DNA from: Candidatus Marinacidobacterales bacterium
GTDB taxonomy: Bacteria > Acidobacteriota > Vicinamibacteria > Marinacidobacterales > DATDRI01
Length of the DNA: 64,000 bases
NCBI GenBank assembly: GCA_965219415.1
Contig: OZ244742.1
Span: 1,856,001 to 1,920,000, forward strand
Reading direction: 5' to 3'
Under the pieces are notes generated by a model. It worked only from the letters and a program-made list of their open reading frames with translations, did no database searches and was not told where the DNA came from. Shown here one piece after another: positions 4,059 to 41,430 of this stretch. Both the position numbers and the translations under genes were made by a program. Within the stretch, counting starts at the first letter, position 1, and every line of letters starts with the position of its first letter.

Positions 4059-4071
4059 ACGGAAGGCAATC

Positions 4072-9732: not shown

Positions 9733-9734
9733 GA

Positions 9735-11567
9735 ATGGGGTACCGCAGTCTTCGCGAGTGCATCCTCGACCTCGAGCAGAACCGCCACTTGGTCCGGGTG
9801 ACCGAGGAAGTCGATCCGCATCTCGAGATGGCGGAAATCCAGAGACGGGTTTACCAGGCGAAGGGGCCCGCGATTTTTTTCGAGAATGTAAAGAACTGCC
9901 GTTTTGCTGCCGTCTCGAACCTCTTCGGAACACTCGAGCGCAGCCGCTTCTTGTTCCGAGATGCGCTGGACCGCGTGACGCGGATCGTCCAACTGAAGGC
10001 AGATCCCTCCCGCGCGGTACGATCGCCACTTACCTTCCTGGCGTCGCCGTATACGGCGCTGACCTCCTTGCCGATGGAGGTGTCGGGCGGACCGGTGCTC
10101 GAGGAGACGACCACGGTCGACCAGCTACCCCAGATCACAAACTGGCCGGACGATGGTGGTCCGTTCATCACATTGGGCCAGGTCTATACCGAGAACCCCG
10201 ACCGCGGCGGTGTCATGAGCTCGAATCTCGGGATGTACCGAATACAGCTCGCGGGAAATCGGTACCGCGCCGGTAAGGAAGTCGGCCTTCACTACCAAAT
10301 CCACCGAGGAATCGGAGTGCACCACGCTATCGCCGTCCGGCGCGGAGAATCGCTCAACGTGAGCGTTTTCATCGGTGGCCCCCCGGCTCACACACTGGGA
10401 GCGGTGATGCCACTACCGGAGGGGCTTTCCGAGCTCTTGTTCGCCGGAATGCTCGGCGGAAGACGTTTTCGATACACGATGAGGGATGGCTTCGTCATCT
10501 CATCCGACGCAGACTTTTGTATCACCGGGACCATCGACCCGCAGCAAACTCTGCCCGAGGGACCTTTCGGAGATCACCTCGGTTACTACAGCCTCGCGCA
10601 CGACTTCCCGGTCCTCACGGTCGACAAGGTCTATCACCGCAGGAATCCCATCTGGCCATTCACCGTCGTTGGCCGCCCTCCGCAGGAGGACACGTCTTTC
10701 GGAGCACTGATCCATGAGATCACGCAACCGATGGTGCCGGTCGAGCTTCCCGGTGTGAAAGCCATTCACGCGGTGGACGCTGCGGGCGTCCATCCGTTGC
10801 TCCTCGCGATCGGAAGTGAGCGCTACGTCCCCTACGGTGAACGGAGGCCGCAAGAGCTCCTCACCATCGCCAATGCCCTACTCGGCTTCGGGCAATGCTC
10901 GCTGGCTAAGTACTTGTTCATCATTGCCGGTGAAGACGACCCGCAGATGGATATTCACGACATCGAGGCATTTCTTCGCCACATGTTGGAGCGGGTCGAC
11001 TGGACACGAGATCTCCACTTCCAAACCCGCACCACCATCGACACGCTAGATTATTCGGGCAGCGGGCTGAACGCCGGCTCTAAGCTCGTCGTCGCGGCGG
11101 CTGGACGTAAGAAGCGCGAGCTCGCGCACGAACTGCCGTCGCGCCTGGAGCTGCCGGATGGCTATACCGACAACAAGCTAGTGATGCCAGGAGTCCTCGT
11201 CGTGCAGGGACCCCGTTTCTCGGAATACGATCAGGCTACCAAGGAGCTGGAGGCCTTGACCAAGCGTCTCGACAAAGGCAGCGACCTAGAAAGTATCGCG
11301 CTTATCGTTTTGGCCGACGACGCCGAATTCGCCGCGGCGAGCCTACGCAACTTCCTTTGGCTGACGTTTACCCGCTCCAACCCTTCCCATGATATCCATG
11401 GAGTCGGAAGCTTCGTCGAGCACAAACACTGGGGCTGCCGCAAATCCTTGGTCATCGACGCGCGACTCAAGCCGCACCACGCTCCGCCACTCATGGAGGA
11501 GCCCGGTGTCGCGAAGACAGTCGATTCCCTAGCCGCCAAAGGCAAGAGTTTGCACGGGATCTGGTGA
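9735..11567 (+). CDS. UbiD family decarboxylase (long type; possible quinone biosynthesis)
   Basis: DGGPFIT, NLGMYRIQ, PEGPFGDHLGYY, GRPPQED motifs. Confidence 0.9.
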   Translation: MGYRSLRECILDLEQNRHLVRVTEEVDPHLEMAEIQRRVYQAKGPAIFFENVKNCRFAAVSNLFGTLERSRFLFRDALDRVTRIVQLKADPSRAVRSPLTFLASPYTALTSLPMEVSGGPVLEETTTVDQLPQITNWPDDGGPFITLGQVYTENPDRGGVMSSNLGMYRIQLAGNRYRAGKEVGLHYQIHRGIGVHHAIAVRRGESLNVSVFIGGPPAHTLGAVMPLPEGLSELLFAGMLGGRRFRYTMRDGFVISSDADFCITGTIDPQQTLPEGPFGDHLGYYSLAHDFPVLTVDKVYHRRNPIWPFTVVGRPPQEDTSFGALIHEITQPMVPVELPGVKAIHAVDAAGVHPLLLAIGSERYVPYGERRPQELLTIANALLGFGQCSLAKYLFIIAGEDDPQMDIHDIEAFLRHMLERVDWTRDLHFQTRTTIDTLDYSGSGLNAGSKLVVAAAGRKKRELAHELPSRLELPDGYTDNKLVMPGVLVVQGPRFSEYDQATKELEALTKRLDKGSDLESIALIVLADDAEFAAASLRNFLWLTFTRSNPSHDIHGVGSFVEHKHWGCRKSLVIDARLKPHHAPPLMEEPGVAKTVDSLAAKGKSLHGIW

Positions 11568-15322: not shown

Positions 15323-15697
15323 ATGAGATACAGCCTGGCGGCAGTTCTCCTCCTTCTCACATTGGCTTGCGATGAAACGCTGGATCGAAGCTCTACGAAG
15401 CAACCGGCCCCGCGGAAGCAAGAAAGCGAGGAGACCGGCCGGGTCTCGATTAGCGGCAACTCGACCGCCACCGAGGGGGAACCGATCAAACTGACCGCCA
15501 AGGTCACCAACGCAACCGGCAGCCTGGACTACGATTGGAGGCTAGAAGGTCGCGGCTCCTTGGTGAGCCGGCAATCGGATTCGAAGCACGCGACCGTGAT
15601 CGCGTCAAGCTCGGGAACTCTCTTCGTCACCCTGACCGTGTCCGAGAACGGCGTCGAAATCGGCAGTGCCCGCTTAACTCTCAGGAGCACCGACTGA
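15323..15697 (+). CDS. Small lipoprotein with Ig/PKD-like domain
   Basis: Lipobox LTLAC, RBS ggagg, beta-rich 'YDW..TLFVTLTV'. Confidence 0.65.
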   Translation: MRYSLAAVLLLLTLACDETLDRSSTKQPAPRKQESEETGRVSISGNSTATEGEPIKLTAKVTNATGSLDYDWRLEGRGSLVSRQSDSKHATVIASSSGTLFVTLTVSENGVEIGSARLTLRSTD

Positions 15698-22814: not shown

Positions 22815-25700
22815 CTACAACACGTCCTGAATGATTCCACGCAGTCTGGCCAAGTTGCGTTTCACCTCCGGGCCCAGATGCACGCGGAGAACACGGCGCC
22901 CCCGCTCCACCAGAACTTCGAAATCCCCCTGCGCTTGAAAGCGCTTCAGGATCCCGAAGGAGTATTTCTGGCCGGGGATCGCGAGGTCATCGGCGTCCTC
23001 GGAGGTAATCTGGAGAAACACCCCACTATTGGGACCGCCCTTGTGCAATTGCCCGGTGGAATGGAGAAAACGCGGCCCGTAACCGAGAGTCGTCGCAACG
23101 TTCTTCGTGGACCGTACCGAACGTCGAATGGCGTTCAACTCCTTCTGGTTCTCCTCGTTCATCTCCACGTAGGCGTTGATGGCGAAATAGTCGCCCGCCT
23201 CCAGACGGCCGAGGTGAGCCTTCAGGTATTCCCGGAGATCCTTGGACTTGGCCGATGCTGCCATGGCCTCCGTATTGCGGGAGTCGGCAAACAGGCTCAG
23301 ATCGCCATCGGCGAGAAGCGGCCTTTCCGAAAGTAGCTCGCGGGTCTCCTCGTAGGCAGTAGTCAGCCTCCGCGTCGCGACCTTGCTCACTTCCACGTCT
23401 GGTTGGTTGAAGGGGTTGATGCCCAGAACCGACCCCGCCGCGGCAGTAGCGACCTCCCAGCGGAAAAACTCCTGCCCCAAGTCCATGCTCTCCACCAGTG
23501 TAATCTTCACCACTGGGTGCCCCGCTCTCTGGAGGGCCTCGGCTGCGACGTCCTGCTCTTTCGAAGGAGCGGGAGCGAGTCGGAGATGCACGAACACTCT
23601 GTCATCTCCGTACGCTTCGGAAGGTCCTAGCGGTTCGTCGTCGATGGGAACCAACCCCTTCCCTTCCTTGCCGGTCGACTCTGCGAGCAGCTGCTCCAGC
23701 CATGCACCGAACGACTTGATTCCGGGGGACGCGATGATCGTCACCTTGTCACGCCCTCGCTTGGCGAGGGTGCCGAGGATGATGCCCAGCTCGACGCCGG
23801 GGTTGACCTCGGGCGGCACAACCGATGCACAGGACTGCACCATAATCTCTGCGTTGTCCAAAAACCTCGGAACGTCCACACCCATCACCGCAGCGGGCAC
23901 CATTCCAAAATGGGACATCACCGAGTACCGGCCGCCGATGGTGGGCACACCGTGAGCGATGTGCCGAAAGTGATTCGCTTTGGCCAGACGGTGAAGCTTG
24001 GTCCCCGGGTCGGTGACGGCGATGAAGTGCGAGCCAGCTTTTTCCGGCCCAACCTCCTGCTCGACCTTGTCGAAGAAATACTGCTTGAAAACGTTGGGCT
24101 CGGTCGTGCTTCCGGATTTCGACGACACGATGAAAAGCGTTTTCGCTAGATTCACCCTCTTCTCGAACGCCCTGACCTGTGCCGGTACCGTCGAATCGAG
24201 AACGAGCAGTTCAGGAAAACCATCCACAACGCCAAAGCTCCGCCGCATCACCTCGGGCCCCAGACTGGATCCGCCCATTCCCAACAGGAGGATGTGCTCG
24301 AACCCTCCCGCCTTAACATCCTCCGCGATGGCCTGAATGTGCTCGGGATGATCGAGTTGGCCACTCACGATGTGCAACCAGCCGAGCCATTGATCTTCAT
24401 CCGCGCCGGACCAAAGCGATGTGTCCCCCCGCCAGAGCCGTCTGACCTTGCCATTGGTTCGCCAGTCGTCGAGAGCTTTCTGAACATCGCTCTCTGCTTC
24501 CCCGAGAAAGTAGGACTGCTTGGCCAGCTCGCCTGCCAATAGGGATCGTCGTTTCCGTTCCACGGCGGCGAGAAGCTTGTCGAAAGCGTTCGAGAATTTT
24601 TTCACCCCGTCGGCAAGCAGATGGTCGGTTACATCCTCCATCGAGATTCCGACCTCACCGAGGGTGGCCATCGTTTCCTCCGCTTGCTCGATGTTCTCCG
24701 CCCAGTTCTCAGTTAGGCTCGGCCGTGCGCGGCCCTTGGATCGAAAGGACAAATAGGTCTCGGTGGGAACTGTGTTCACGGTATCTTCACCGATCAGTTC
24801 ATCGACGTAAAGAGTCTTGGGATACTTCGGGTTCTTGGTGCTGGTGCTTGCCCACAAGAGCCTCTGTGTCTTGGCCCCTTGATCGGCCAGCGACTTCCAT
24901 TTCTTTGCGGAGTGGAGCTCCCGGTAGAGCGCATAGGCGACCCTAGCGTTGGCGATGGCCACTTTCCCAACCAAGCTCTTCAACTTCTGACGCCTCTCCG
25001 CTTCCCTCGTGGCGTCGAGAGCCTCACAAACCTTCTGGTCGACGAGCGAATCGATACGACTCACAAAGAAGCTAGCAACGCTCGACACACGAGAGAGGTC
25101 GCCTCCCGCCGAAGCGAAAATCTCGAGACCATCCATATACGCGTTGGCCACCGCCTCATAGGACTCGACCGCGAAAAGCAGTGTGACGTTGATATTGATG
25201 CCCTCTCCGATGAGCTGCTTGATCGCGGGCACGCCCTCGGGGGTCGCGGGAACCTTGATCATTACGTTCGGCCGGCCGATGGACTTGTGCAGACGGCGGG
25301 CTTCCTCGAGCGTACCTCCGGTGTCGTTGGCGAGGTAGGGCGACACCTCCATGCTCACGAAACCGTCGCGGCCTGAGGTCTGCTCGTAAACGCCGGCCAG
25401 AACGTCGGCGGCTAGTTGAATGTCCTCGATGGCCAAACCTTCGTAAATGTTCTTGGCGTCCCCGGTATCTTGCGAGACCAGCTTCTTAGTCGCGGCGTCG
25501 TAGTCGGTGCTGCCGGCCAGGGCCTTTTCGAAGATGGAGGGATTCGATGTCACGCCCAGCAGACCGTCTCCCTCTACCATCTCCTTGAGCTCGCCGGATG
25601 TAATGAGGCCGCGGCGAATATTGTCGTACCAGATGCTCTGGCCGAATTTCTGGACGTCTTGGATTGGGTTGGACACGGCGCTAGCCTCGAATCTTTCCAT
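22815..25700 (-). CDS. Bifunctional transaldolase / phosphoglucose isomerase
   Basis: Transaldolase motifs GVTSNPSIF, MIKVPAT, LWASTSTK, followed by PGI-like GMGGSSLG, SSKSGST, GGRYS, EQLLAESTGK, FNQPDVE. Start approximate. Confidence 0.93.
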   Translation of the reverse strand: MERFEASAVSNPIQDVQKFGQSIWYDNIRRGLITSGELKEMVEGDGLLGVTSNPSIFEKALAGSTDYDAATKKLVSQDTGDAKNIYEGLAIEDIQLAADVLAGVYEQTSGRDGFVSMEVSPYLANDTGGTLEEARRLHKSIGRPNVMIKVPATPEGVPAIKQLIGEGININVTLLFAVESYEAVANAYMDGLEIFASAGGDLSRVSSVASFFVSRIDSLVDQKVCEALDATREAERRQKLKSLVGKVAIANARVAYALYRELHSAKKWKSLADQGAKTQRLLWASTSTKNPKYPKTLYVDELIGEDTVNTVPTETYLSFRSKGRARPSLTENWAENIEQAEETMATLGEVGISMEDVTDHLLADGVKKFSNAFDKLLAAVERKRRSLLAGELAKQSYFLGEAESDVQKALDDWRTNGKVRRLWRGDTSLWSGADEDQWLGWLHIVSGQLDHPEHIQAIAEDVKAGGFEHILLLGMGGSSLGPEVMRRSFGVVDGFPELLVLDSTVPAQVRAFEKRVNLAKTLFIVSSKSGSTTEPNVFKQYFFDKVEQEVGPEKAGSHFIAVTDPGTKLHRLAKANHFRHIAHGVPTIGGRYSVMSHFGMVPAAVMGVDVPRFLDNAEIMVQSCASVVPPEVNPGVELGIILGTLAKRGRDKVTIIASPGIKSFGAWLEQLLAESTGKEGKGLVPIDDEPLGPSEAYGDDRVFVHLRLAPAPSKEQDVAAEALQRAGHPVVKITLVESMDLGQEFFRWEVATAAAGSVLGINPFNQPDVEVSKVATRRLTTAYEETRELLSERPLLADGDLSLFADSRNTEAMAASAKSKDLREYLKAHLGRLEAGDYFAINAYVEMNEENQKELNAIRRSVRSTKNVATTLGYGPRFLHSTGQLHKGGPNSGVFLQITSEDADDLAIPGQKYSFGILKRFQAQGDFEVLVERGRRVLRVHLGPEVKRNLARLRGIIQDVL

Positions 25701-25819
25701 TGAGAAGTGTAAACCGCTAGGTTCCCTGTAGATGTAACCCATTCGGAGAAACCAAGCAAGAGCTTACTTAAGCGGGCGGGCGCCCGCTTGGCGCCCGCGG
25801 CTCAAGCTGGGCACTCGCG

Positions 25820-26315
25820 TCTTACGCAGCTCATCGGACGCAGGACATCAGGCTCTGGCAGCGCAGGTCCTCGGCTACGTCGACGTCAAGCAGGCCGTCG
25901 TCGACGATCTCGTGTACGCGATGAGCGATCCGTCCGTGGACGTCCGGAACAACGCGATGCGGACGTTATGGGTGTTCACCGCGGCAACGCCAAGTGCGGC
26001 GCGCCCTGTCCCACGTGTTCCTTATCAACCGTTCATCATGTTGCTCCACTCTCCGGATTTTACGGATCGGAACAAAGCGTCACTAGCACTTCGAAGGGTC
26101 GGGACCCGCAGCTTCTCAGGAGGCTGCGTAACGAGGCCATGGCGCCGCTCGTTGAGATGGCCCGCTGGAAGAGCGAGGGGCATGCAATGGCTGCCTTCAT
26201 CATCCTCGGGCGGATCGCTGGCTACTCAGACGAGGCCGCAGAGGCCGCCTGGCATCGGGGTGAAAGGGAAGAGGTCATCGGCGCAGCGCTCAGTCGACAT
26301 GGGCCGGCCGTCTGA
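25820..26315 (+). pseudogene. HEAT-repeat protein fragment, frameshifted; probable former integron cassette
   Basis: 'LVYAMSDPSVDVRNNAMR' in ORF 25912 continues as 'RDPQLLRRLRNEAMAPLVEMARWK' in another frame. No clear 5' end. Confidence 0.6.
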
Positions 26316-26330
26316 CTGCGCTGTTATACC

Positions 26331-28730
<2,400 letters not shown>

Positions 28731-29200
28731 CGTGTCAAATCTGGGTGCTATTGATATGCGCTTTATTGCTTTCATTGTTCCGGGGAGTACCGACTACCCA
28801 TGACGATGCCCTGGAGAGTCTGAAGTCAACGGAAGCGAGGCGCCTCGCGGCGTTGAATGCCCGAGATGTGGATACGATTGTGGAAATTGAAGGTGGTGCG
28901 GTCGGGTTCGGTCGGGCATCCACAGTTCCGCGAAGAAATGAACCCGCGTCCTTCAAAGCAAGAATCGAAAGCTGGTTCAGCACCATGGAGAACCTTGAGA
29001 TCGAACTACTCGACGAAGACTATCGGGTCGTTGGCAACACCGGTTTGGTGGTCGGAACGCTTGTGCGGAGGGAGAGGCCCATCGGAGGTAAGCCCTTAAC
29101 TCGACGACTACGGTATTCAGCGACTTATGTCCTGCAAGGGAAACAGTGGCACATGGTTCAGTACCATCGTTCACCGATTCCGGCAGAAGCAACCTCTTGA
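28731..29200 (+). CDS. NTF2-like (DUF4440-type) secreted protein; integron-cassette gene, start uncertain
   Basis: Hydrophobic N-terminus, 'ALNARDVD', 'GNTGLVVG', 'RYSATYV..QWHMVQYHRS'. Followed by an attC site. Confidence 0.72.
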
Positions 29201-29244
29201 GATGGATCTCCGCGAGTATGATTTGCATGGAGAGTGACGAACCA

Positions 29245-29343
29245 GCATAACAATTCGCTGCGGCTGACGAGTGGCTCGAGTTGCTTGGAAGAATAAGACG
29301 TTCTTATTGGTGCGCCACTCGCAGCTGAGCTCGACTGTTAGGC
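29245..29343 (+). other. Integron attC recombination site (99 bp)
   Basis: GCATAAC (29245) ... GTTAGGC (29337). Arms gctg(a)cgagtggc / gccactcgcagc with an unpaired base, and central hairpin aataaga-cgt-tcttatt. Confidence 0.85.
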
Positions 29344-29356
29344 GACTCTCGGGACG

Positions 29357-29490
29357 GTCCGGAGACATAGGTAACAAAACAGTCCGGGGACATGGGTGAC
29401 AGTAGAGAGGTACCGGGAGGTGCCTCGTGGGATGGAGGTCAACGTCACCTATGGGCGAGCGAGTGCGTTTCATAGTGGATGCTCCAGAGC
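29357..29490 (+). mobile_element. IS481-like left-end stub
   Basis: Direct repeats gtccggagacataggtaaca / gtccggggacatgggtgaca, then GTG 29427 'GWRSTSPMGERVRFIVD', resembling IS481-family transposase N-termini. Confidence 0.65.
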
Positions 29491-29507
29491 AGGGCGGCAG
29501 CCTTAAG

Positions 29508-29681
29508 AGCCTTACGGACCAAGGAGGCATCAACCGAAATCGTCGAATAGGATATGGTGCGCAGGGCGAACGAGCCAACAGGGGCAGGCACTAAGAGGCA
29601 CGAAATCCTACCCATCCGAGAAATTGGATGGCTCTCGATAGCGCCCATTTGGGGTCTGTTGGTAGCAGGGCGGTAGCAGCC
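29508..29681. repeat. att-like repeat copy 3: nqrF 3'-end duplicate plus 126-bp arm
   Basis: tcaaccgaaatcgtcgaaTaggatat at 29530-29555. 29556-29681 matches 31882-32007 with about 3 differences. Confidence 0.9.
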
Positions 29682-29756
29682 CCCAGGCTCTACATTACGA
29701 TATACCTCCGCTGCGACCTGTGTGCCACCGCAGGGAACGCGCATCCTCCCGCCTCT

Positions 29757-30007
29757 GATCGATCTCGGTCGCGCTAGGCTGACTCGAAGCCGTAAGTGAC
29801 GGCGAAAACCCGCATCTCCACTGTAGATTCTCTCACTCCGACACTGAGGTACGGTACCGTAGAAGACGGCATCTTGCGGGCTTTATCGGGACCGTAGATC
29901 GATCCACATTTCGCCGAGCCGATAGGAACGACGGACCATTTGCCGGATTCTCCATCAGGTGCACGGACCTAGCGCGACCCAAATCAGTGCGTCGTGACTA
30001 GATGCCC
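29757..30007 (+). ncRNA. Candidate structured non-coding element, copy A (most complete)
   Basis: Perfect 12-bp closing stem 29767-29778 / 29968-29979 plus internal stems. Homologous to 32009-32198 and 33695-33924. Confidence 0.55.
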
Positions 30008-30107
30008 GCGTTGCCGCACAGTAAGCCACTAGCCCTTTTGACTTTTCAGCCTGTGCGGGACTATTCTCAGATTGATCGGCCAGCCCAAAGCAGTTGGAGG
30101 CTTTCCC

Positions 30108-30270
30108 ATGGCCAACGAACATCGTCAGCAGGTGGAAAGGCTGGTCCGGGCTGCGCTTGAACACCCTCCCTCCGAGAGAAGCCTTTTTCTGGAAGGCGCG
30201 TGCTTGGAGGACGCGTCCCTACGAAAGGAAGTCGAAGCCATCCTCGCTTCTCGGGAGCCTCCTGCGAGTT
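30108..30270 (+). pseudogene. N-terminal stub of a Ser/Thr protein kinase
   Basis: RBS ggagg, then MANEHRQQVERLVRAALEHPPSERSLFLEGAC..DASLRKEVEAILA, a typical pre-kinase leader. No kinase domain follows. Confidence 0.65.
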
Positions 30271-30364
30271 CTCCCCAGGAGCCCCACAGCACCCGCCGGA
30301 TTTCATCGACGATAATGTGCCCGCACGAAGTGCGGAGTTTGTCTGTTTCCGAAAGGAGGATCAG

Positions 30365-31519
30365 ATGACGAAACTCAAGAAATGGATCGCGAGTGCGACC
30401 CTTGCGTGCCTCTGGGCCTGCGGCAGTCCGGAGCAATCGACCATAGACCAATTCTTCCGTGCCGCCCGGACCAACGACCCTACAACGCTTGCTTCCATGT
30501 CGGCCGTCGGCCCTCCCGTGGAGGTAGAGTCGTGGAAGGTGGTCGAGGTTAGCTCCCGATCAACGGAGCCTTTCGCGTTGCCGGAGCTCCTCGACCGGTT
30601 TGAGGCCGCCACGAAGGAACGAGACGCCGCGGTGGAGGCAGGCCAAAAGTATGCCAGCGACCAGCCGGATGCTCTCGAACGGATCATCCCAAAGCTGCGA
30701 GAGGGTTCAGATTACAAGTTCCGTGGAAAGATGGGTGAGATTCAAGAGGAGTGGTTGAGGCTGGTTGAGGAGCGCAGAGAGAAGGAAGGCACATTTCAAG
30801 AGCTCAAACGGGCCGTACGTAGTGAAACCGGACTCGCCACCAAGTCGGTGATGCGCCAGGTGAACGTCGAGAACCTAGACGGAGACGTCGCGGTGACGGA
30901 AATGCTGCTCCGCCTCAAACCCCGGGATGGCGACGAGCTGCCCTATAGGGTTGTGCTTCGAAAGTACAAACTCTCTGAGCCGGAGAGCGATCGCATCGAG
31001 CCCGCGCGTTGGGTCATCCTCGACATCGAGGGGACAACCCCGGAGGCTCGGGCCGCGGCATCCGCGCCTGCCAAGGCGAGTGAACCATCCTCAGAATCGG
31101 CAGACGCCACCGAGCCCTCGAAGGTTGCCGACAACCAAGGCGCCGCCGAGAGCAAGCAGCCTGCCCGGAACGAGCCAACGTACCGGCCTCGAGAGTTACG
31201 CGGCCTCGCTAGAGTTCAGATTCTCACCCCCGAGACAAAGGTCGAAGGCGACGAGGTGATCACCACCATCCGGGTGCGCAATGTGTCGAAGGACTGGATA
31301 ACGCGGTTTATGGTGACGGAGCACTGGTACGACGAGCAGGGCAACGCGGTGAGAAGTGGTTCGCGAACGCACCAAAAGCAGTTCATGCCGGGCGAGGTCA
31401 TAGAGATGGAGCTGCGGACGCGCAAGAACCCGAAGTTCTACCAGAACCAGTTCGAGTTCTCGCACGCCAACGGTGACGTCAAGGCCTTTCCCGTCGGGAG
31501 CTTCCCGAAGGACACTTAA
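30365..31519 (+). CDS. Hypothetical lipoprotein (coiled-coil region, linker, C-terminal beta domain)
   Basis: RBS aggagga, lipobox LWAC, long ORF with host-like codon usage. Confidence 0.78.
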   Translation: MTKLKKWIASATLACLWACGSPEQSTIDQFFRAARTNDPTTLASMSAVGPPVEVESWKVVEVSSRSTEPFALPELLDRFEAATKERDAAVEAGQKYASDQPDALERIIPKLREGSDYKFRGKMGEIQEEWLRLVEERREKEGTFQELKRAVRSETGLATKSVMRQVNVENLDGDVAVTEMLLRLKPRDGDELPYRVVLRKYKLSEPESDRIEPARWVILDIEGTTPEARAAASAPAKASEPSSESADATEPSKVADNQGAAESKQPARNEPTYRPRELRGLARVQILTPETKVEGDEVITTIRVRNVSKDWITRFMVTEHWYDEQGNAVRSGSRTHQKQFMPGEVIEMELRTRKNPKFYQNQFEFSHANGDVKAFPVGSFPKDT

Positions 31520-31826
31520 GAGTAACGCGACTACCCGGTCGAGCGCGGCTGGGGCGCATAACTCTTTGCGTGCAGGACAACTGATCCGCATTGGGTCGGT
31601 TGACACCCGCATCCACGCCCCGAGTACAGATTCGCCTCGCGCTAGGCACGCCGCTTTCGCCGTAGTGGGACGCGGCCATGTCGCCGCGATAGATTGATCC
31701 TCCGCCTGCTAGGTCGAGCCAAGTGATGAGGAATCAACGAAAGGCCCCTTGGGTCCCATGTGATTGGCGAAAAGCGACGCTGCGATTGTTTCACGATCGC
31801 GAGCGCCGCTCGCACGTCAACGTAGA

Positions 31827-32007
31827 AGCAGAAAGCCTTACGGACCGAGAAGTTATCAACCGAAATCGTCGAAGAGGATATAGTGCGCAGGGCGAACTAG
31901 CCGACAGGGGCAGGCACTAAGAGGCACGAAATCCTACCCATCCGAGAAATTGGATGGCTCTCGATAGCGCCCATTTGGGGTCTGTTGGTAGCAGGGCGGT
32001 AGCAGCC
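31827..32007. repeat. att-like repeat copy 2: nqrF 3'-end duplicate plus 126-bp arm
   Basis: 31827-31881 aligns without gaps to 34321-34375. The arm ends in GGTAGCAgggcGGTAGCA. Confidence 0.9.
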
Positions 32008-32008
32008 T

Positions 32009-32198
32009 CTGTGGATTCCCTCTCACAGACACCGAGGATCCGGCACTGTAGAAGTCGGCATTTTGCGGGCTTTGTCCGGGCCCGTCAGAATCGATTAGCA
32101 TTGGCTGATCTGATAGGAACAACGGGGCGTTTCCCGTATTCACCATCGGGTGGACGGACCTAGCGGGAGCCAAATGAGTGCGTGGCGTCTAGATGCCC
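32009..32198 (+). ncRNA. Candidate structured non-coding element, copy B (5'-truncated)
   Basis: Aligns to ~29821-30007; shares cggcat.ttgcgggc, gataggaac and acggacctagcg blocks. Confidence 0.5.
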
Positions 32199-32245
32199 TA
32201 GATGGGGGTTTGTCGTGGACAGATGGCCTCGTATTTATCAACCCG

Positions 32246-33625
32246 TCAGACGCCGCTGCGATAGGCGAAATCGCTCCGTGAATGCACCTGACCGTCTCTG
32301 ATGATCAAATCGATCTCTCGAATGTCGCGGATGTCCTTCAACGGATCGGCGTTCAGAATGAGCAGATCGGCCCACTTCCCCGCCTCCACGGTTCCGAGCT
32401 TGTCCTCCACGCCGATGGCCTTGGCTCCGATACGGGTTGCGGCGACCAGAGCCTCCATGGGGCTCAATCCACATTCGACGAATAACTGCACCTCCCAGGG
32501 AGTGTTGTAACCTTGAAAGTTGTAACCCACCCGCCCACCGCCGTCGGTTCCGACCGCGAGCTTCACACCGGCCTGGTGCATCTTGGTGACGTTCTCTTTA
32601 AAAACCGGGATCTTCTCAGCCACCCACTGGTAGATGTCCTCGCCCGCGATTTGCCGAAAACGCGCGTTCTCTTCCGCCATGAAGTCGGCACGGCGCATCC
32701 GCTCGAGTAGAAAAGTGGGCACGCTGCCCACGAGGATGGGGTCGTCGAATCCGTCCGGCCGTTCATCGTAACGAAGGAAGGCCTCGAACAGGCTGACGGT
32801 GGGAATGATGATAATGTCATTATCGACCATCTCTTGCAGGATGGGATCCCCTTCCGGGATAGGGTCTTCCAATCCGTGCACGATGCCCCGCGGTCGGATA
32901 GAAACCGCCTTCCTGTACTCCTCGAGATTGATGGCGTGCACATAGATTGGAACGTCTTCCGCTTCGGCCACTTCCACGATCGCCTCGAGCATATCGTCGG
33001 GCATCACCGGGACGGTACCGGAACGGTCTGCCATTCCGTCTTCGATGACGACCTTGAAGCCGTCCGTCCCCTTAGCGACGTAATCGAGGGCCCGCTGCCG
33101 GGCCGCCTCGGCATCTTTAAGGGTCCTTCCGAGGTGGTTTCCCCAGCCTCCTTCTGGAATGAAAGCGCGTCCCATGGCGTAGATCCTCGGCGAGATCAGC
33201 CGACCTTCCCTTTGCGCCGCACGCCTCGCCCAAATCCATTCCTCGTCGGAAGAAACGTTCAGTACGGTGGTGACACCGTTATAGAGCAGGGCGTTGCCGT
33301 TGTGTTCGATGATCTGTTCTCTCTCTTCGGGCGAGATCTGGTAGGCGATCGGGGCATCCAAGTGGATGTGAGCGTCGATGAGGCCGGGGACCACGAACTT
33401 GCCGGTAGCGTCGATGACCGTCGCTCCTCGCGGCGGCTCGAGATCGGTCCCTATCGCCTCGATCTGATTTTTGCGAATCCAGATGTTCGCACCCGTTTGC
33501 GGAGCGGCGCCGGTCCCGTCGATGAGCGTTGCATTCTGTATGAAGACGCCCTCTTGAGGCGGCTCGGCACTGCATCCCGCGATTACTAGCAATCCGCCCA
33601 GAAGAATCGTGCTGACACTTTTCAT
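32246..33625 (-). CDS. Metal-dependent amidohydrolase lipoprotein
   Basis: Lipobox IAGC, PGLIDAHIH, VGTD, GTVEAGKWADLLIL. Confidence 0.92.
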   Translation of the reverse strand: MKSVSTILLGGLLVIAGCSAEPPQEGVFIQNATLIDGTGAAPQTGANIWIRKNQIEAIGTDLEPPRGATVIDATGKFVVPGLIDAHIHLDAPIAYQISPEEREQIIEHNGNALLYNGVTTVLNVSSDEEWIWARRAAQREGRLISPRIYAMGRAFIPEGGWGNHLGRTLKDAEAARQRALDYVAKGTDGFKVVIEDGMADRSGTVPVMPDDMLEAIVEVAEAEDVPIYVHAINLEEYRKAVSIRPRGIVHGLEDPIPEGDPILQEMVDNDIIIIPTVSLFEAFLRYDERPDGFDDPILVGSVPTFLLERMRRADFMAEENARFRQIAGEDIYQWVAEKIPVFKENVTKMHQAGVKLAVGTDGGGRVGYNFQGYNTPWEVQLFVECGLSPMEALVAATRIGAKAIGVEDKLGTVEAGKWADLLILNADPLKDIRDIREIDLIIRDGQVHSRSDFAYRSGV

Positions 33626-33694
33626 CGCTGACTCCTTTCTCGCGGTCAGATTCTAACCCGCTTGTCCACCGGACACGCTCATCTCACCGCCAAG

Positions 33695-33924
33695 GATCGA
33701 TCTAGGCCCTGCTGGGCTGATCCGAAGCCGTAGCAAACGGGGAAATCCCTCATCCTCGCTATCCATTCTCTCACGCGGACAGTCGGAGTGCGGCACGGTG
33801 GGAGTCGGCATCTTGCGGGCCTTATCGGGACCGTAGAATCGGTCAACATTTCACCGATCTAGTGGAACGACGGTCCATTTCCTCCCGTCGCTAACCGTAG
33901 CCTTCTCCTAGGACAGGCGGAATC
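33695..33924 (+). ncRNA. Candidate structured non-coding element, copy C
   Basis: Aligns to 29757-29985. Stems atcggt/accgat and cgacgg/ccgtcg are perfect in this copy. Confidence 0.5.
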
Positions 33925-33927
33925 GGT

Positions 33928-34449
33928 TTGTCGCGGCGAGATGAGCGCGTTCGCTCAGCAAAATCAAGCTGGCTCTTCTTTCCCGAACTCGGGGTGAGCC
34001 CCGACCAAAGGGCGGTGGATCGGGTCACAGCAAGGATACAAAAAGCCTTTCGCCGAACGGCTAGACGGGCACAACTGCCGGGCCATTTCAGCGTTCATAG
34101 TCTGAGACACACCTACGCAAGCCTGTTACTCCAACAGGGGGAATCTACCGTCTACGTCCAGCGGCAACTGGGCCACTCCAGCATTCGGATAACGGTAGAC
34201 GTTTATGGCCGCTGGCTACCAATGGGCAACCGCGATGCTGTGGATCGTCTCGCAGGGATTAACGAATTTGTAGCGCGAGCGGCAAGTGGTAGCAAAATGG
34301 TAGCAAACGCGGCGAGAAAGAGCAGAAAGCCTTACGGACCAAGAAGAAATCAACCGAAATCGTCGAAAAGGATATTCTCCGGTTCCACTCCCAGGCCGTC
34401 GAGCATTTGCATGCAAGCCTTGAGCATGAGCGGTGGACCACAGAGGTAG
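33928..34449 (+). pseudogene. Tyrosine recombinase/integrase, C-terminal fragment
   Basis: HSLRHTYAS (H-x-x-R), LGH and the catalytic Tyr region 'ITVDVY'. The N-terminal and first-Arg regions are absent. The frame runs across the att site antisense into nqrF. Confidence 0.88.
34288..34375. repeat. att-like repeat copy 1 (functional nqrF end) with paired GGTAGCA arm-type repeats
   Basis: GGTAGCAaaatGGTAGCA at 34288-34305; core at 34321-34375. Confidence 0.85.
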
Positions 34450-35576
34450 TACTCGATGTCCTCGGGCGCGGGATGATCCTTCAGGTAGTTGTCGTAAACA
34501 ACCTGGTGGATGAAGCCGGTGTAGCCGGTCCAGTTGTCTTGGGGTAGCGGCTCGGAAAGGGCGAGATACCACTTGAAGTTGTCGAACTCTTTTTGAATCT
34601 TGTCGAAGTCCTCGATGTAGAACGCCTCGCGCAGACTCCGCGCCCCATACCAAAAGGTGATTTTACGCTCAGCGTCGATTCGGTAGAACTGATCGAAAAT
34701 GTGTGAGCGCATCGGCGCCATTCCGGCACCGCCGCCGATGAAGAGCATCTCCGCTTCGGTCTCCTTGGCGTAGAATTCGCCGAAGGGGCCGGAAATGGTC
34801 ACCTCGTCTCCTGGCTTCAAACCGAAGATGTAGGACGACATCTTGCCCGGCGGCGTACCTTCGGGAGCTCGCGGTGGCGGAGAGGCGACACGCACGTTGA
34901 GCAAAATGATCCCCTTCTCCTCCGGGTAGTTGGCCATCGAGAACGCACGAGTGACCGGCTCGTCCACGGTGGAGACGTAGCGCCACATGTTGAACTTGTC
35001 CCAATCCTCTCGGTATTCCTCTTCGACGTCGAAGTCCTTGTAGTTGACGACATGCGGCGGGGCCTCGATCTGTATGTATCCGCCGGCGCGGAACGGAACC
35101 GATTCCCCCGGGGGAAGCTCCAAGACCAGCTCCTTGATGAACGTAGCCACGTTGTGGTTCGAGCGAACCTTGCACGTCCACCTGCGAACATCGAAGACCT
35201 CGGCCAACACTTCGATCTTCATGTCCTGCTTGACCTTCACCTGGCACGACAGGCGGACGCCGTCGCGAGCTTCCCCCCGGCTGATATGGTTCTCCTCCAC
35301 CGGGACCATAGCGCCGCCGCCTTCTTTGACGGTGACCGTGCAAACACCGCACGTTCCCTTTCCTCCGCAGGCCGAGGGGATAAAGATCTTGTTCGCGGCT
35401 AACGTGCCCAACAATGTTCCCCCCGCCGGCGTGGTCAGCACCTTGTCCGGATCGTCGTTGACGGTGATGGCCACGTCCCCGGTGGCGACAAGCTCTCGCC
35501 GGGCGACCATCAACAAGCCCACCAGCGTCACGATGACGAAGGTGAACATGAAGACCCCGAGTGCGATAGTGACCAT
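34350..35576 (-). CDS. nqrF: Na+-translocating NADH:quinone reductase subunit F
   Basis: [10 protein letters not shown] 2Fe-2S motif, [23 protein letters not shown], terminal DDFG. Confidence 0.97.
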
Positions 35577-35589
35577 AGTGCGTCGTTTC

Positions 35590-36207
35590 CTAGAGCTGGA
35601 TGCCTCCGAAAGCCATGAATCCGATGGCCATCAGACCGGTGATGATGAACGTGATCCCCAAGCCGCGGAGGCCGGCGGGGATATTGCTGTAGCGAAGTCG
35701 CTCTCGAATGCCGGCCAGGGCGATGATGGCGAGCGCCCAGCCCACACCCGAGCCAAACCCGAAGACCACGCTCTCTCCGAACGCGTAGTTGCGCTCGACC
35801 ATAAAGAGTGACGCCCCCAAAATCGCGCAGTTTACGGCGATCAAGGGCAGAAACACGCCCAACGCCGCGTGCAGCGTGGGTAGGAAGCGATCGAGCGTCA
35901 TCTCCACGATCTGCACCATCGCCGCGATCGTGCCGATGTAGGTGAGAAAACCGAGAAAAGACAAATCGTAGGACGCCAGCTCCGGGCTGACCCAAGCCAG
36001 CGCGCCTTCCTTCAGTAGGTACGTGTAGATCAGAAAGTTCATGGGAACGGTGATGGTCAGAACGAAGACGACGGCGCTACCAAGACCGATCGCGGTGTCC
36101 ACCTTTCTCGACACCGCGAGAAAAGAGCACATACCCAAGAAAAAGGCGAGGGCCATGTTCTCGACGAAGATGCTCTTGATGGCTAGATTCAAATAGTGTT
36201 CGAACAT
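35590..36207 (-). CDS. nqrE: Na+-NQR subunit E
   Basis: [22 protein letters not shown]; operon position. Confidence 0.96.
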
Positions 36208-36208
36208 G

Positions 36209-36835
36209 TCAATCCGCCTCCACTTGGTCCGGCTTCCAGGTTCTCAAGATCCAGATGAAGAGTCCAATTATGAAGAACGCGGCAGGTGACAACAGCATGA
36301 GAGCGTTGGGATTGTACCAACCGCCCTCGGTCACCAAAGGCATCAAGGTGATCCCGAACAGGGAGCCGGATCCAAACAACTCCCTCAAGAACGCAGTTAG
36401 CATGAGAATGAGCGAATACCCTAGGGCATTGCCGATCCCGTCCAACACGCTCTGCATCGGCGGGTTCTGCATCGCATAAGCCTCGGCGCGGCCCATGATG
36501 ATGCAGTTGGTGATGATGAGACCGACAAACACCGATAGCTGCTTCGAGATTTCGTAGACGTAGGCCTTGAGAATCTGATCGGTGACGATCACCAAGGACG
36601 CGATGATGGTCAGCTGCACGATGATCCGAATATTTGTTGGAATCTGATTTCGGAGCAGGCTGACGAATAGGTTGGACAGCGCCAGTACCGCGAGGACCGC
36701 CACGCTCATGACCAGAGCGGTGTCCATTTTCGTAGTCACCGCGAGTGCCGAGCAGATTCCCAACACTTGATAAGCGATTGGGTTGTTGTTGAAAAGCGGA
36801 TCGGCGAGCGCGTCTCGCGCCTTGCTAGTCATCAA
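36209..36835 (-). CDS. nqrD: Na+-NQR subunit D
   Basis: [25 protein letters not shown]. Confidence 0.96.
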
Positions 36836-37617
36836 CTGACTCCTTCAGTTTTCCTCAATCGGTCGAGGTAAGGGCCGAAGCCATTTTCCGCAAGCCAGAA
36901 CTGAATCATGTTGGTCACGCCGCGGCTGGTGATGGTGGCACCCGAGAGACCGTCTACCCGATAGGGATCCTCGGCGGGCGGTCCGGCACGCCCCTTGACA
37001 ACGGTAACGACGGGTTTGTCTTCGTCGTCGAAGGCCAAGCGTCCGTCCCAACGAGCCTTCCAAATCGGATTATCGACCTCGCCGCCCAGACCCGGGGTCT
37101 CTTTGTGCTCGTAATAAGTGATGCCGCGGATGGTGTTGAGATCGGCACCATCCAGCGCCAGAAAACCGTAAAGGGTTCCCCAAAGGCCGTAGCCCTCGAT
37201 GGGCAGAATCAGAGTCTGAATCCCCCCGCTGTCATCTTGGAGCTGGTACACCAAGGCGTTGTCGGCGAGGCGCTGAACCCGCGAGCGATTGTCGGGGGCG
37301 GCTCGACTGGTACTGGGATCCATCGCTGCCTTCCAGTAATCGAAAGTCGCCGGATCGATTCCTTCTGTCTCTTCTCCCGTCTCGAGATCGATGACCACCT
37401 GCCGGACAGGCGTGAAGCGCTCCTCGATCTCTTGGCGGCTCAACTTTTCCTCGTCCTTCGCCAGCCCGGCGGCGATCAGCACATTCCGCTGCTTGTCCAG
37501 CGCCGCGTTGACATCTTGCCGGTCTTTCAGAGAGACCGCGGCCCATGAAACGAAAACCGCGCAGACAACCGACACCACGGCCGCGAACCACAGGTTGTAT
37601 TGGACGCTATGCTGCAT
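36832..37617 (-). CDS. nqrC: Na+-NQR subunit C
   Basis: [19 protein letters not shown]-attachment [10 protein letters not shown]. Confidence 0.96.
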
Positions 37618-38827
37618 AGCGAGCCTTCCTACGTTTTATATTAGCCTGCACAACGAAATGGTCAATCACCGGAGCAAAGACGTTCATTAGCAGGATCGCC
37701 AGCATCATCCCTTCCGGATAGGCCGGATTGACAACCCGGATCAGCACCGCTAACACCCCGATTAAGAAACCGTAGATGTAGGCGCCACGGTTGGAAGTGG
37801 GAGCAGACACCGGGTCGGTCGCCATGTAAACCATGCCGAAGGCCCAGCCGCCCAGCACGAAGTGCCACCAGAAAGGCACGTCGAAGAAGGGATTTGTCGA
37901 AGAACCAACGCCGTTGAGGACGAGCGTCATGGCGATCGTTCCGAGGGCGACGCTCAGCATAATGCGCCACGAACCGATTCCGGTGATTACGAGAAGGAGC
38001 GCGCCAGCCAAACATGCAAGAGCGGACGTCTCTCCCATCGACCCCGGGACGAACCCTATAAAGGCATCCCACCAACCAACCCCCCCGGCAATGGCAGCTT
38101 GTCCACCTTCCACGGCGTTCGCCAGCCAGGTCGCGCCGCTTACCCCGTCGGCGGCCGTCACCGCGGCAATCCATACCTGATTTCCCGTGATCTCGGCAGG
38201 GTAGGCAAAGAACAGAAACGCGCGGGCAGTGAGGGCCGGGTTCAAGATGTTGAAACCCGTCCCCCCGAAGACCTCTTTACCAATAACCACACCAAAGGTG
38301 ATGCCGAGGGCGACCTGCCAGAGAGGGATATTGGGCGGAAGAATGAGTGGGAACAAGAACCCGGTGACCAAGAAACCCTCGTTCACCTCATGCTTCCGGA
38401 CCACAGCAAAGACGACCTCCCAGATGCCGCCAACCGCGAACGTGACGATGAACACCGGAAGGAAATAAAGCGCGCCGTGAACGATGCATGCCCAGACGTT
38501 TCCGGGATCGAGGCCTAACCCCAGCGCTCCCATCGCCTCGGTCTGCCACGTGGTTAGCGGAGCGGCCCCTTTCGAGATCGCGAGGTTCGCCTGGTAACCG
38601 GTGTTGTACAACGCCATGTACAGGCAGCCGGCCAGCGAGATCACGACCGTCATCATCATGCGCTTGAGATCGAGGCCGTCGCGCGCATGCGCGGCTCCCT
38701 TTGTGACCTCGCCCGGCGTGAACAAGAAGGTATCGTTCGCCTCCCAGAGCGGATAGAGCTTTTCGAGCTTTCCGCCTTTTTCGAAAAGCTTGGCCTGCTT
38801 GTCGAGTAGGTTGCGTAGGAGTTTCAT
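37607..38827 (-). CDS. nqrB: Na+-NQR subunit B
   Basis: [17 protein letters not shown]-attachment DGVSGAT, MATDPVS. Confidence 0.96.
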
Positions 38828-38839
38828 GAGCAGGTTTGG

Positions 38840-40219
38840 CTAGCCTTCTTTCTCGACCGTGGTGAGGACGTCACGGAGAAACGGTCCGTAGTCGTTTTTC
38901 CCCGGGTCCACGAAAGTGCACAGTCCGAGATCCTCCTCGGCCAGCTCCAGGCACCCAAGTTCCTCGGCACGCACGACGTCGCGCATCAGGAGCGAACGCA
39001 GCATCGCCGTCGGCATGATGTCCATCGGCATCACCTTCTCATACATACCTATCGGAACGATGGCGCGGACCGATCCGTTGGTGGAGGTGGTGAACGCGAA
39101 CTTCTTCCCCGGGATGAGCTTGGACACAAAGGTATTAATGATAGAGAACTTGTCGAACCCAGGCCCCAACCAACCGAGAAACTCGCGCTCCCGCCCCTCG
39201 CGAAGAACGGTCACTTGTCGATCATACCGTCCGAGATAACCCAATATCTCTCCGGAAGCCTCGCGTCCCGAAAAGACAGAGCCTGAGATGACACGGTTCT
39301 CTCCTTCCCTTAGCTCGCCGTCAAGGAGATCCTCCGTCGACGCGCCCACCCTCGTCCGCACCAACCTAGGCTGCCGCACCGCCGGACCAGCGATTGCGAT
39401 CACACGCTCCACATCGAGCTTGCCGGTCTGAAAGAGCTTTCCGATCGCCACCACATCCTGATAGCCAGCGTGCCAGACCGTCTTGTTCCGATCGACGGGA
39501 TCCAAACGGTGGATGTGAAGGCCCACCGTGCCGGCGGGATGAGGGCCCTGGAACTCCTCGTGACGAAACGGATCATCTCGAGGTATTGGGACCCGGCTTC
39601 CTGGCGATGTGCAAACGAAGACCGGTCCGTCAGTCAACTTGGAGAGTGCGTTGAGACCCTGCTCGAAATCGGAATGTCGTCCTTCGAGCACAACGTCTAC
39701 CGAAGGCGCCAGGGGATGCGTGTCTATCGCGGCGACGAAAACCGAGTGCGGCTTGTCGTTGGGATGGGCGATGTGGCCGAAGGGGCGCCCGCGCAACGCA
39801 GTCCACATCCCGGACTCGATGAGGAGCCCAGCGACATCGTCCCGCGAAAGACCGTCCGGGTGCTTCCCGGTGAAGGACGAGAACGAGGCTTCTTCGGGCC
39901 CTCCACCCCGGCCCCCCCTTTCGTTCTGGCTCAGCTCGATGACGACAGATTGAAGAGCTCGGCGCTCGCCCCGATGAATGGCCGCCACCTTGCCCGCACC
40001 CGGCGACGTGTAGCCCACCCCGGGCGTCTTTTTGTCCTCGAAAAGGAGCTGGCCGTGGCGAACGTCGTCCCCTTCCGCGACGAGCATTGTGGGGCGCAAG
40101 CCCACGTTGTCACTGGCCAGGAGCGCGACCTTCCCTGGGGTGCCACCATCCTGAACGGCTTGCTCCGGCTCCCCCGAAATAGGCAGCCGAAGGCCCTTTC
40201 TGATCTTGTGTAGTCCCAT
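38840..40219 (-). CDS. nqrA: Na+-NQR subunit A
   Basis: [41 protein letters not shown]. Confidence 0.96.
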
Positions 40220-40470
40220 TTATCCGCTTAGCAACGCGCTGGCTACCAACAAAACCCTATATTTTAGCGCAACCGCACGCCTCCCGAACACTATTATTGC
40301 TTCCAATCTAGATCGGTGCTCACGCCGGACCAGAAATGACCAAACCCGTGTCCAAATTAGCGACCAGGATTGCAGGTTTGCCCGTAGGGGCGGTCGCGTG
40401 CTAAAGACCAAACGTCTCGCTGGGGGACGCACGCACCCCGCACCCTGTCCCCGAGCTACAATAATAGGTA

Positions 40471-41430
40471 ATGCCTTTCGCAAGCCGTCGAAGACTCCGC
40501 CCCATGGGGCTCGGGGCCTTGTGGTTGCTCCTTTGCGGCCCTGCCATCGAAGGCGGCGAATCGAGCCCAAGGGCGAGGGTTCCTGCTTTAAGGCAGGAGA
40601 CGACGCGCTTCTCGGTAGACGTCAACGCCGTCGCCCTGGACGTCGTGGTGACCGACCGGAAGGGTCGATTCGTGAAGGGTTTGAAGGAAGAGGATTTCGT
40701 CGTTCTAGAAGACGGCGTTCCGCAAGAGTTGACATTCTTCACCTCCGGCAACACCCCAATCACCGTGCTTCTCCTCTTGGATAGCTCTGCCAGCGTCCGC
40801 TCGCACCAAGAAGAGGTTCAGAAGGACGCCAACCGGTTCATCAGCAAGCTGCAAAAGGGAGATCAGGCTCGAATCGGGTTGTTCCACAACGAGGTGATCT
40901 TCGGTCCCAGATTCACGGACGACATGGACGAACACATCGCAATGATCAACCGCATGCGCCCGCAACGCAGCACCCACCTCTACGACGCGCTCCTGAGTGG
41001 CCTCCACGAACTGTCTGTGATTCCCGATCGCAGGGCCCTGCTCGTATTCACCGATGGCGCCGACGGAGGCAGCACCGCGACCCGAGAGGATGTGCTGGAA
41101 GCGTCACGTCGATCCCAAGCCTCGGTATACACAGTCGGTCTCGTGGGGTGGAGCTTCGAGGAAGGGATGAACACCAACCAGCAGCTGCTCACGCAGATAG
41201 CCGAGTACACCGGGGGCCGTGCCTTCTTTCCGCAAAAGGAAAAGGAGATGCGGAAAGCCTTCGACCGCATCCGAGACGAGTTGCATCGCACTTATCGCTT
41301 GGCGTACTTCCCCCCAAGAAAGGTGGACCACGCCACCTGGCACTCGGTCGAAGTACAACTCGCTAAGCGCAAGAATCTCGTCGTGCGGACCCGCTTGGGA
41401 TACTACAGCTATCCCGGCCAGACACAGTAA
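40471..41430 (+). CDS. Secreted VWA-domain protein (acidobacterial VWFA-related type)
   Basis: 'VVVTDRKGRFVKGL..EDF', MIDAS DSSAS, THLYDAL, FTDG, TGGRAF. Start may be 40504. Confidence 0.9.
   Translation: MPFASRRRLRPMGLGALWLLLCGPAIEGGESSPRARVPALRQETTRFSVDVNAVALDVVVTDRKGRFVKGLKEEDFVVLEDGVPQELTFFTSGNTPITVLLLLDSSASVRSHQEEVQKDANRFISKLQKGDQARIGLFHNEVIFGPRFTDDMDEHIAMINRMRPQRSTHLYDALLSGLHELSVIPDRRALLVFTDGADGGSTATREDVLEASRRSQASVYTVGLVGWSFEEGMNTNQQLLTQIAEYTGGRAFFPQKEKEMRKAFDRIRDELHRTYRLAYFPPRKVDHATWHSVEVQLAKRKNLVVRTRLGYYSYPGQTQ

Follow-up and report, generated by a model that had tools for sequence, protein, structure and literature searches.

In Escherichia coli, phage 21 and e14 reside in icd, where a replacement 3′-end borne by the element keeps the target gene functional. 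Both are prophages with full gene sets, whereas the locus described here, at the 3′-end of nqrF in a Candidatus Marinacidobacterales bacterium (Acidobacteriota; GenBank assembly GCA_965219415.1; genome G000, 8,046,490 bases), holds remnants only, two of them stacked. The DNA analyzed, hereafter the window, is the whole 64,000-nt stretch at positions 1,856,001 to 1,920,000 of contig OZ244742.1, and window coordinates are used throughout. Positions 29501-34375 very probably constitute a stack of two decayed tyrosine-integrase islands at the nqrF 3′-end (Table 1).

ICESt1 and ICESt3 of Streptococcus thermophilus reside in the 3′-end of fda, a protein-coding gene (PMC3234194). The nqrF stack resembles them in that a tyrosine-integrase element occupies the 3′-end of a protein-coding housekeeping gene (PMC3234194), but it differs in target gene, host lineage, and integrase family. 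One account defines cis-mobilizable elements (CIMEs) as elements that have lost the genes for integration and transfer and have kept attL and attR (PMC5704250). In the nqrF stack, the attachment (att) sites are likewise kept, and the integration genes are lost or truncated. The same account describes decayed units without integration genes that retain both att sites, and further elements that enter the att site at the gene end to form a tandem array, a layout shared by the stack (PMC5704250). In contrast to CIMEs and their integrative and conjugative partners, the nqrF stack has no functional partner element, and no conjugation or mobilization genes were seen in it. Gene-end direct repeats, an adjoining tyrosine integrase in remnant form, an intact target, and an insertion absent in relatives are all found here, as in integrative islands.

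Islands of the same integrase family at tRNA genes share with the nqrF stack a convergent integrase of ~410 aa whose frame runs into the att core, GGTAGC-type motif pairs that lie within the integrase 3′-end and, on the other arm, ~106-112 nt inward of the far att site, and tandem stacking, but their core is the 3′-half of a tRNA gene instead of the 3′-end of a protein-coding gene. The stack also recalls an integron, being a row of small gene-carrying units split by recombination sites and lying beside a tyrosine recombinase gene. However, it has neither attC hairpins nor attI, its sites copy a gene end directly, and its cargo lies on both strands. An integron was rejected on these grounds and because the recombinase is not IntI (TIGR02249, 44.6 bits against a cut-off of 265). 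The initial annotation of the window, made from the sequence alone, had likened the units to cassette accretion; the comparison is fair, but the described counterpart is the accretion of CIMEs or islands, not the integron.

Three Copies of the nqrF End

The nqrABCDEF genes all lie on the minus strand of the window, and the 408-aa NqrF scores 660.9 bits against TIGR01941 (cut-off 295), with positions 1-404 of 405 covered. A 55-nt direct repeat, composed of the final 26 nt of nqrF and 29 nt beyond its stop codon, occurs three times within 4.9 kb (copies A, B, and C; Table 1). Compared with copy B, copy A is 93% and copy C 80% identical. The right-hand 26 nt of each copy (29530-29555, 31856-31881, and 34350-34375) are the reverse complement of the nqrF 3′-end, in positions and sequence as the initial annotation had them. 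Pairwise comparison also bears out its observation that a single position varies among them, the third base of a Leu codon (A, G, or T on the plus strand, giving CTT, CTC, or CTA), a synonymous difference that leaves every copy reading ILFDDFG-stop. The 29 non-coding bases show 3, 9, and 10 pairwise differences. A nearly invariant coding core next to a variable non-coding part is what one would expect of elements that each had to restore NqrF. The flank AGCCTTACGGACC is common to copies A, B, and C, again as first described. Homology breaks sharply, at exactly the 26th base of nqrF, where copy A runs on into nqrF and copies B and C run into a common arm.

Searching the genome with an nhmmer profile of the three copies (--max) returned exactly three matches, with the next at E = 0.4, and revealed no degenerate fourth copy. 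Among 55 genomes of the order, the 26-nt pattern with no more than three mismatches is present three times in G000, once in each of five others, and not at all in the other 49, and its reversed control gave no match in all 55. Three near-exact 26-mers in 8 Mb cannot have arisen by chance.

All three copies are bridged by contigs from four public sequencing runs of three studies, one of which runs may be the assembly's own source. These contigs reach unique sequence on either side and span 28800-29607 at att C, 31518-31933 at att B, and 31978-34538 and 31978-35200 at att A. In three of the runs, no differences were found at the bridged junctions. Run X1, which is ~1% diverged, has no contig coverage left of ~29863, a gap to which no weight is given, and runs with only small shares of the sampled words of the stretch were left aside. 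The initial annotation had allowed that the repeats might be an artifact lacking spanning sequence, which the bridging contigs contradict. Just left of att C, contigs of three runs jump back from 29403 to 29358 with 4-5 added letters, which suggests copy-number variation of a ~45-nt tandem repeat at 29358-29403.

Table 1. Features of the nqrF 3′-end stack and its target gene in window coordinates.
Feature	Position	Strand	Description	Basis
att copy C (attR-like)	29501..29555	+	Far end of the stack	Repeat search; identity with A and B from ~29508
Arm X, distal unit	29556..29681	+	Ends in GGTAGCA-N4-GGTAGCA at 29661-29678	Repeat search
Module copy S_C	29728..30013	+	Full copy	nhmmer E 1.8e-111
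Distal-unit cargo	30033..31547	+	98-aa open reading frame (30072-30368) and 384-aa protein (30365-31519)	No significant Pfam family for either
Module copy S_inv	31653..31791	-	Partial inverted copy of the module 3′-half, where the distal integrase would be expected	nhmmer E 5.4e-07
att copy B	31827..31881	+	Junction of the two units	Repeat search, profile; contigs bridge
Arm X, proximal unit (P arm)	31882..32007	+	Ends in GGTAGCA-N4-GGTAGCA at 31987-32004	Repeat search
Module copy S_B	32006..32232	+	Copy without the first ~105 positions	Repeat search, nhmmer
Proximal-unit cargo	32246..33625	-	459-aa amidohydrolase	PF01979 E 8.8e-30
Module copy S_A	33666..33953	+	Full copy with 32-nt inverted ends (33670-33701 / 33922-33953); adjoins the truncated integrase	nhmmer E 1.5e-100
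Tyrosine-integrase remnant	33955..34320	+	Residues ~275-409 of ~410-aa relatives; N-terminal ~270 codons gone	PF00589; tblastn
Motif pair in integrase 3′-end	34288..34305	+	GGTAGCA-N4-GGTAGCA, encodes GSKMVA; putative P′ arm-type integrase-binding sites	Motif count
att copy A (attL-like)	34321..34375	+	Last 26 nt of functional nqrF and 29 nt downstream	Repeat search, profile
nqrF	34350..35576	-	Intact target; last gene of nqrABCDEF (nqrA 38840-40219)	Open reading frames; Fer2, FAD_binding_6, NAD_binding_1; TIGR01941

Integrase Remnant and Arm Motifs

The tyrosine-integrase fragment that the initial annotation placed next to the functional nqrF copy is indeed there, adjoining att A, with PF00589 matched at E 2e-12 (profile positions 89-165 of 172) and the last ~135 codons left. 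It is convergent on nqrF, and its open frame, 33928-34449, crosses att A into antisense nqrF. At copy B, the integrase frame would end at a TAG stop created where the core meets the arm, and copy C has no such junction stop. When tblastn was run with four full-length relatives, no second integrase remnant appeared in 25000-35000. Apart from the remnant, the closest integrase encoded in the genome shares 35% identity with it over 102 aa. In a scan of a genome-contig collection, the fragment matched only three distant relatives (28-34% identity), none of them informative.

Each of the two X arms, as well as the integrase 3′-end, carries a GGTAGCA-N4-GGTAGCA pair. All three pairs have an 11-nt period, and on both P arms the distance to the core is 106 nt. 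Over 125 nt, the two arms share 98.4% identity, and their last 105 nt are identical. GGTAGCA occurs nine times in the window against 3.17 expected, a count that 0 of 100 shuffles reach, and six of the nine belong to the three pairs. The pairs are putative arm-type integrase-binding sites.

Related Integrases at tRNA Genes

A protein database search with the remnant yielded 856 proteins at E ≤ 1e-10, the best of which are 47-58% identical, ~400-450 aa long, and carry PF14659, PF22022, and PF00589. The C-terminal tails of the integrase relatives resemble translated tRNA genes, as in GEPWWDRTTDPLLKRQVLY. The closest metagenomic relatives, encoded at 80 metagenome-contig loci (L078-L157), are 48-65% identical to the remnant. 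A convergent tRNA gene lies no more than 250 nt from the end of the match at 46 of these loci (Lys 28, Thr 14, Asn 2, Ala 1, Met 1). Among the 34 without such a gene, 23 were inspected, and by eye about 11 have tRNA-fragment-like tails. Five nearly identical relatives (L119, L124, L125, L127, and L132) adjoin the 5′-end of moeA, so non-tRNA targets occur in the integrase family. These moeA-type integrases end a few bases before the moeA start codon and have three GGTAGCA repeats in their 3′-end (L125, 7800-8300).

A tandem pair of GGTAGC-type 7-mers is found at the integrase 3′-end in 73 of the 80 relatives. In 73 relatives, a conserved GSK(M/V)VA peptide close to the C-terminus has a tandem repeat as its coding DNA (GTGGTAGCAAA twice or similar), and this peptide may be conserved because the underlying DNA is a binding site. 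One of the loci, L118, contains a complete 5.7-kb island. The 3′-half of tRNA-Lys is directly repeated there over 41 nt, one GGTAGCA pair stands 112 nt inward of the far repeat, and the integrase 3′-end contains another. At L148, arm types alternate between units, as they do in the tRNA-Asn stack described below. Since the tRNA-bound relatives have the same arm layout, the layout at nqrF is the standard one of the family with the core exchanged.

The nqrF Site and a tRNA-Asn Stack in Sister Genomes

G001 belongs to the same genus as G000, and the nqrF genes of G001 and G002 are 92% identical to that of G000. A single att copy is present at nqrF in G001, G002, and G003. In both G001 and G002, nqrF and the block up to ~25761 (a transaldolase-PGI fusion gene) are present at 87-88% DNA identity. 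The gap between nqrF and the transaldolase-PGI gene amounts to 6.0 kb in G001 and 4.4 kb in G002 and is filled with genes unrelated to those of G000, including a DEAD-box helicase, an MFS fragment, and GNAT; no integrase and no cargo homologs were found in it. The DNA behind nqrF is unrelated in G000, G001, and G002, and a strictly empty site was not found. In G001 (L054, ~15341-15383), ~14 nt past the 55-nt repeat are shared with copy A and are integrase-tail-like, though no integrase is present. This likeness suggests a scar from an older occupation of the nqrF site.

G001 also harbors a stack at a tRNA gene (L076, C1:5748000-5766000), in which a 58-nt tRNA-Asn 3′-repeat occurs in three copies bounding two units (1633-10451). 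Unit 1 has a perfect GGTAGCA pair on its P arm, 107 nt inward of the far copy; on its P′ side, just before the middle copy, the pair is degenerate (GTAGCGA...GGTAGCA). Unit 2 has GGCACCA pairs on both arms, with the P-arm pair 107 nt from the core, and a frame-broken integrase that runs into the tRNA gene. Because each unit has its own matched motif on both arms, this stack provides the best evidence for arm-type sites and for separate elements. Its cargo comprises a DnaK-like gene and a sulfatase, and it includes one copy of the ~290-nt module considered next.

The Repeat Module

Copies of a ~290-nt module flank both cargo segments in the window. The module has 32-nt inverted ends (75%) and a well-conserved center, where column identity averages 82% across 126 columns of six aligned copies. 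The copies beside the two arms are ~79% identical. Single-base indels between copies argue against a coding function. Seven copies were found, four in the nqrF stack, one on contig C3 of G000, one in the tRNA-Asn stack of G001, and one in G020. The copy on C3 is located upstream of tRNA-Ser(UGA), beside an IS256-type transposase (identity by eye); within ±20 kb, neither a repeated tRNA fragment nor an integrase belonging to this family was found.

BLAST detected the module only in G000, G001, and G020 among 401 genomes of the class. A covariance model of the module core (R1) recovered only its six building copies from the 55 genomes of the order, and no matches were obtained in plasmids, viral contigs, or the 80 metagenomic integrase loci. 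Rfam returned no match to the module at E ≤ 1 in 25000-41000, the fold z-scores are +0.59, -0.30, and -2.78, and in an alignment fold of six sequences 3 of 37 pairs show compensatory change. Given no Rfam match, weak z-scores, and little covariation, the module gains little support as a structured RNA family. The initial annotation had described each unit as reduced to att, arm, structured element, and cargo. The decay and the layout stand, and the term 'structured' is not borne out, for the reasons just given and since the module also occurs outside att arrays.

No target-site duplication was seen by eye, and no parent element was found; whether the module is of the type of miniature inverted-repeat transposable elements is evenly balanced. 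Its right end adjoins a 5′-truncated tyrosine recombinase gene in both G000 (S_A) and G020. The recombinase of G020 (L077, C293, 1-700, minus strand) is without its first ~45 codons and aligns to XerC model positions 46-145. This fragment matches XerC at E 5e-7 and the phrog_1 integrase at E 2e-7, and its type differs from that of the G000 remnant. On its other side, the G020 module borders a truncated cytochrome-like gene (by eye), and the contig ends inside the recombinase. The module is regarded as a rare island-associated repeat. A promoter and terminator scan gave nothing useful.

Cargo Genes and Neighboring Insertion Sequences

The amidohydrolase of the proximal unit has a 75.6% identical paralog on contig C3 and was not found behind nqrF in G001, G002, G003, or G005. 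In the distal unit, 1300 nt with the gene for the 384-aa protein (30248-31547) are 99.7% identical to C2:128141-129440, and the neighboring C2 sequence matches 30033-30159 at 85% identity. The 99.7% identity marks the distal cargo as a recent intragenomic duplicate or conversion. Read depth over this C2-like cargo is approximately doubled in three runs (contig mean only). The copy on C2, a 284-kb contig, sits beside an IS3-type element.

An IS3-family insertion sequence (IS) also occupies window positions 27352-28668, with 27-nt inverted ends (96% complementary) and two transposase frames. It carries an ALIL frameshift pseudoknot (RF01497, 85.2 bits), the only Rfam match in 25000-41000. The left end of the IS3 element falls within the 3′-part of a reading frame for an IS30-like transposase (26426-27475; HTH_38 and rve), and judging from this overlap, the IS3 element seems to have been inserted into the IS30-like one.

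Proposed Formation of the Stack and Alternative Explanations

The observed repeats, integrase remnant, arm motifs, and family context could be accounted for by the following sequence of events. The attP core of a circular element would have matched nqrF over its final 26 nt and a further ~22-29 nt beyond the gene. The tyrosine integrase of the element would have bound GGTAGCA-N4-GGTAGCA direct-repeat sites on both arms, and strand exchange would have taken place inside the core. The 19-nt stretch ATCAACCGAAATCGTCGAA, identical in copies A, B, and C and in G001, is the most likely place for this exchange. Integration would leave nqrF intact, with an extra copy of its end at the opposite border of the island. 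A second, near-identical element (arms 98% identical), presumably the later one, would then have entered one of the att sites, giving the order att C - unit 2 - att B - unit 1 - att A - nqrF. Through deletions, unit 2 would have lost its integrase wholly and unit 1 the first ~270 codons of its own, and the ~290-nt inverted-end repeat would have spread or recombined inside the stack. The cargo now present would be the gene for the amidohydrolase together with a segment of two genes that was duplicated from C2.

As the locus stands, unit 29501-31881 has both att copies and is without an integrase, and unit 31827-34375 has only the truncated one. Near-identical arms beside clearly different left halves of the cores fit two integrations of near-identical elements. 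The proposal of the initial annotation that the element carries a replacement nqrF 3′-end agrees with the homology break at the 26th base, the integrase frame that enters the core, and the matched arm motifs. Its proposal of tandem accumulation gains support from the same architecture in relatives (G001, L118/L148) and from the single-copy nqrF sites of relatives. It had also counted at least two, probably three, elements. Two units are upheld, as the three att copies bound two units, and evidence for a third was not found, there being no fourth att copy and only one integrase remnant. The stack appears to be immobile now, given that the best other integrase is only 35% identical and that the contigs contain no excision joints.

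Several observations weigh against this account. A full-length integrase with an nqrF-type core was found nowhere searched, so the form of attP is deduced and not seen, and the core pattern TTACGGACC-N8-ATCAACCRAAATCRTCGAANAGGATAT had no match in metagenome contigs or viral contigs. The initial annotation had looked to homologous integrases for an association with nqrF-end duplicates, and the outcome is formally negative. None of the 80 metagenomic relatives adjoins nqrF, and of the nine other genomes in the order where the remnant has a match, none has it near nqrF (the unpublished G007 is one of the nine and is counted in this tally only). As these relatives are only 48-65% identical and reside on tRNA genes, the result speaks for a rare nqrF specificity and not for its absence from this locus. 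In addition, an arm motif is missing from the distal unit on the side toward nqrF. Copies B and C differ at four positions in 29521-29528, at one (29548), and at three in 29556-29577, with none onward to 29681; these differences are not cleanly partitioned, which leaves the crossover point undefined, and gene conversion between the arms may have contributed. Part of att A may predate the split between the G000 and G001 species, if the ~14 shared nt are a guide, which would complicate two recent integrations. Finally, the circular junctions of the units envisaged at first were not encountered, no excision joint being present in the contigs of the four runs, a weak point since contigs drop rare variants.

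Other origins of the repeats were also considered. That the three copies are an assembly artifact or a chance repeat deserves practically no credence. Nothing favors it, and it is refuted, as far as contigs show, by copies that are 80-93% identical and thus neither collapsed or duplicated reads nor a duplication error, by contigs of four runs across each copy, by exactly three occurrences in 8 Mb, and by a control that is empty in 55 genomes. It is improbable, though less so, that a single integration occurred and that the second att and arm copy arose through internal duplication or unequal homologous recombination, for example between the ~290-nt repeats. Such an origin would suit the presence of only one integrase remnant, and arms that are 98.4% identical while the adjoining modules are ~79% identical suggest recent copying or conversion of an arm. 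However, the cores differ at four positions within 8 nt (29521-29528) and in the Leu codon, differences that a simple duplication would have copied, and the stacks of G001 and L148, with a separate arm type per unit, indicate that serial integration is normal for the family.

A still-working platform for gene capture, in which cis- or trans-mobilizable cassettes are moved in the manner of integrons by a recombinase encoded elsewhere, is very improbable. In its favor, every unit has retained its two att sites and one arm or more, the distal cargo is recent (99.7% identity to C2 over 1300 nt), and cis-mobilization of such decayed units is described in the literature (PMC5704250). Yet the best other integrase in G000 is only 35% identical over 102 aa, excision joints are missing from the contigs, cargo is encoded on both strands, the att copies repeat a gene end directly and are no attC-type hairpins, and the integron-integrase score stays at 44.6 bits where 265 are required. 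It is likewise doubtful that the locus is a two-level site of gene shuffling, where a tRNA-type integrase has been retargeted to a protein gene and the module serves as a second site of recombination or insertion. The att core would there encode the NqrF C-terminus on one strand and the C-terminal tail of the integrase on the other, which is an unlikely proposition. Similarly unlikely is the part assigned to the module, which would import cargo (it flanks both segments) and trim recombinase genes (two types in two genomes). Two successive integrations followed by decay remain the preferred explanation.

Significance

Tandem accretion of decayed islands, as CIMEs, is already known, and no new mechanism is involved here. 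The use of nqrF as a target is apparently unreported, as no report of it as an integration target was found by full-text searches of the literature, with the supplementary target-gene tables of island surveys outside this scope. For genome annotation, the stack explains two orphan nqrF tails, an integrase fragment, and the differing DNA behind nqrF in sister species, and it provides island-finding software with a test case in which a non-tRNA target is combined with stacked units devoid of an integrase. With nqrF, a gene of the respiratory chain joins the list of protein-coding integration targets, and an integrase lineage found mostly at tRNA genes (46 of 80 loci) also occupies the end of a protein gene with its arm architecture unchanged.

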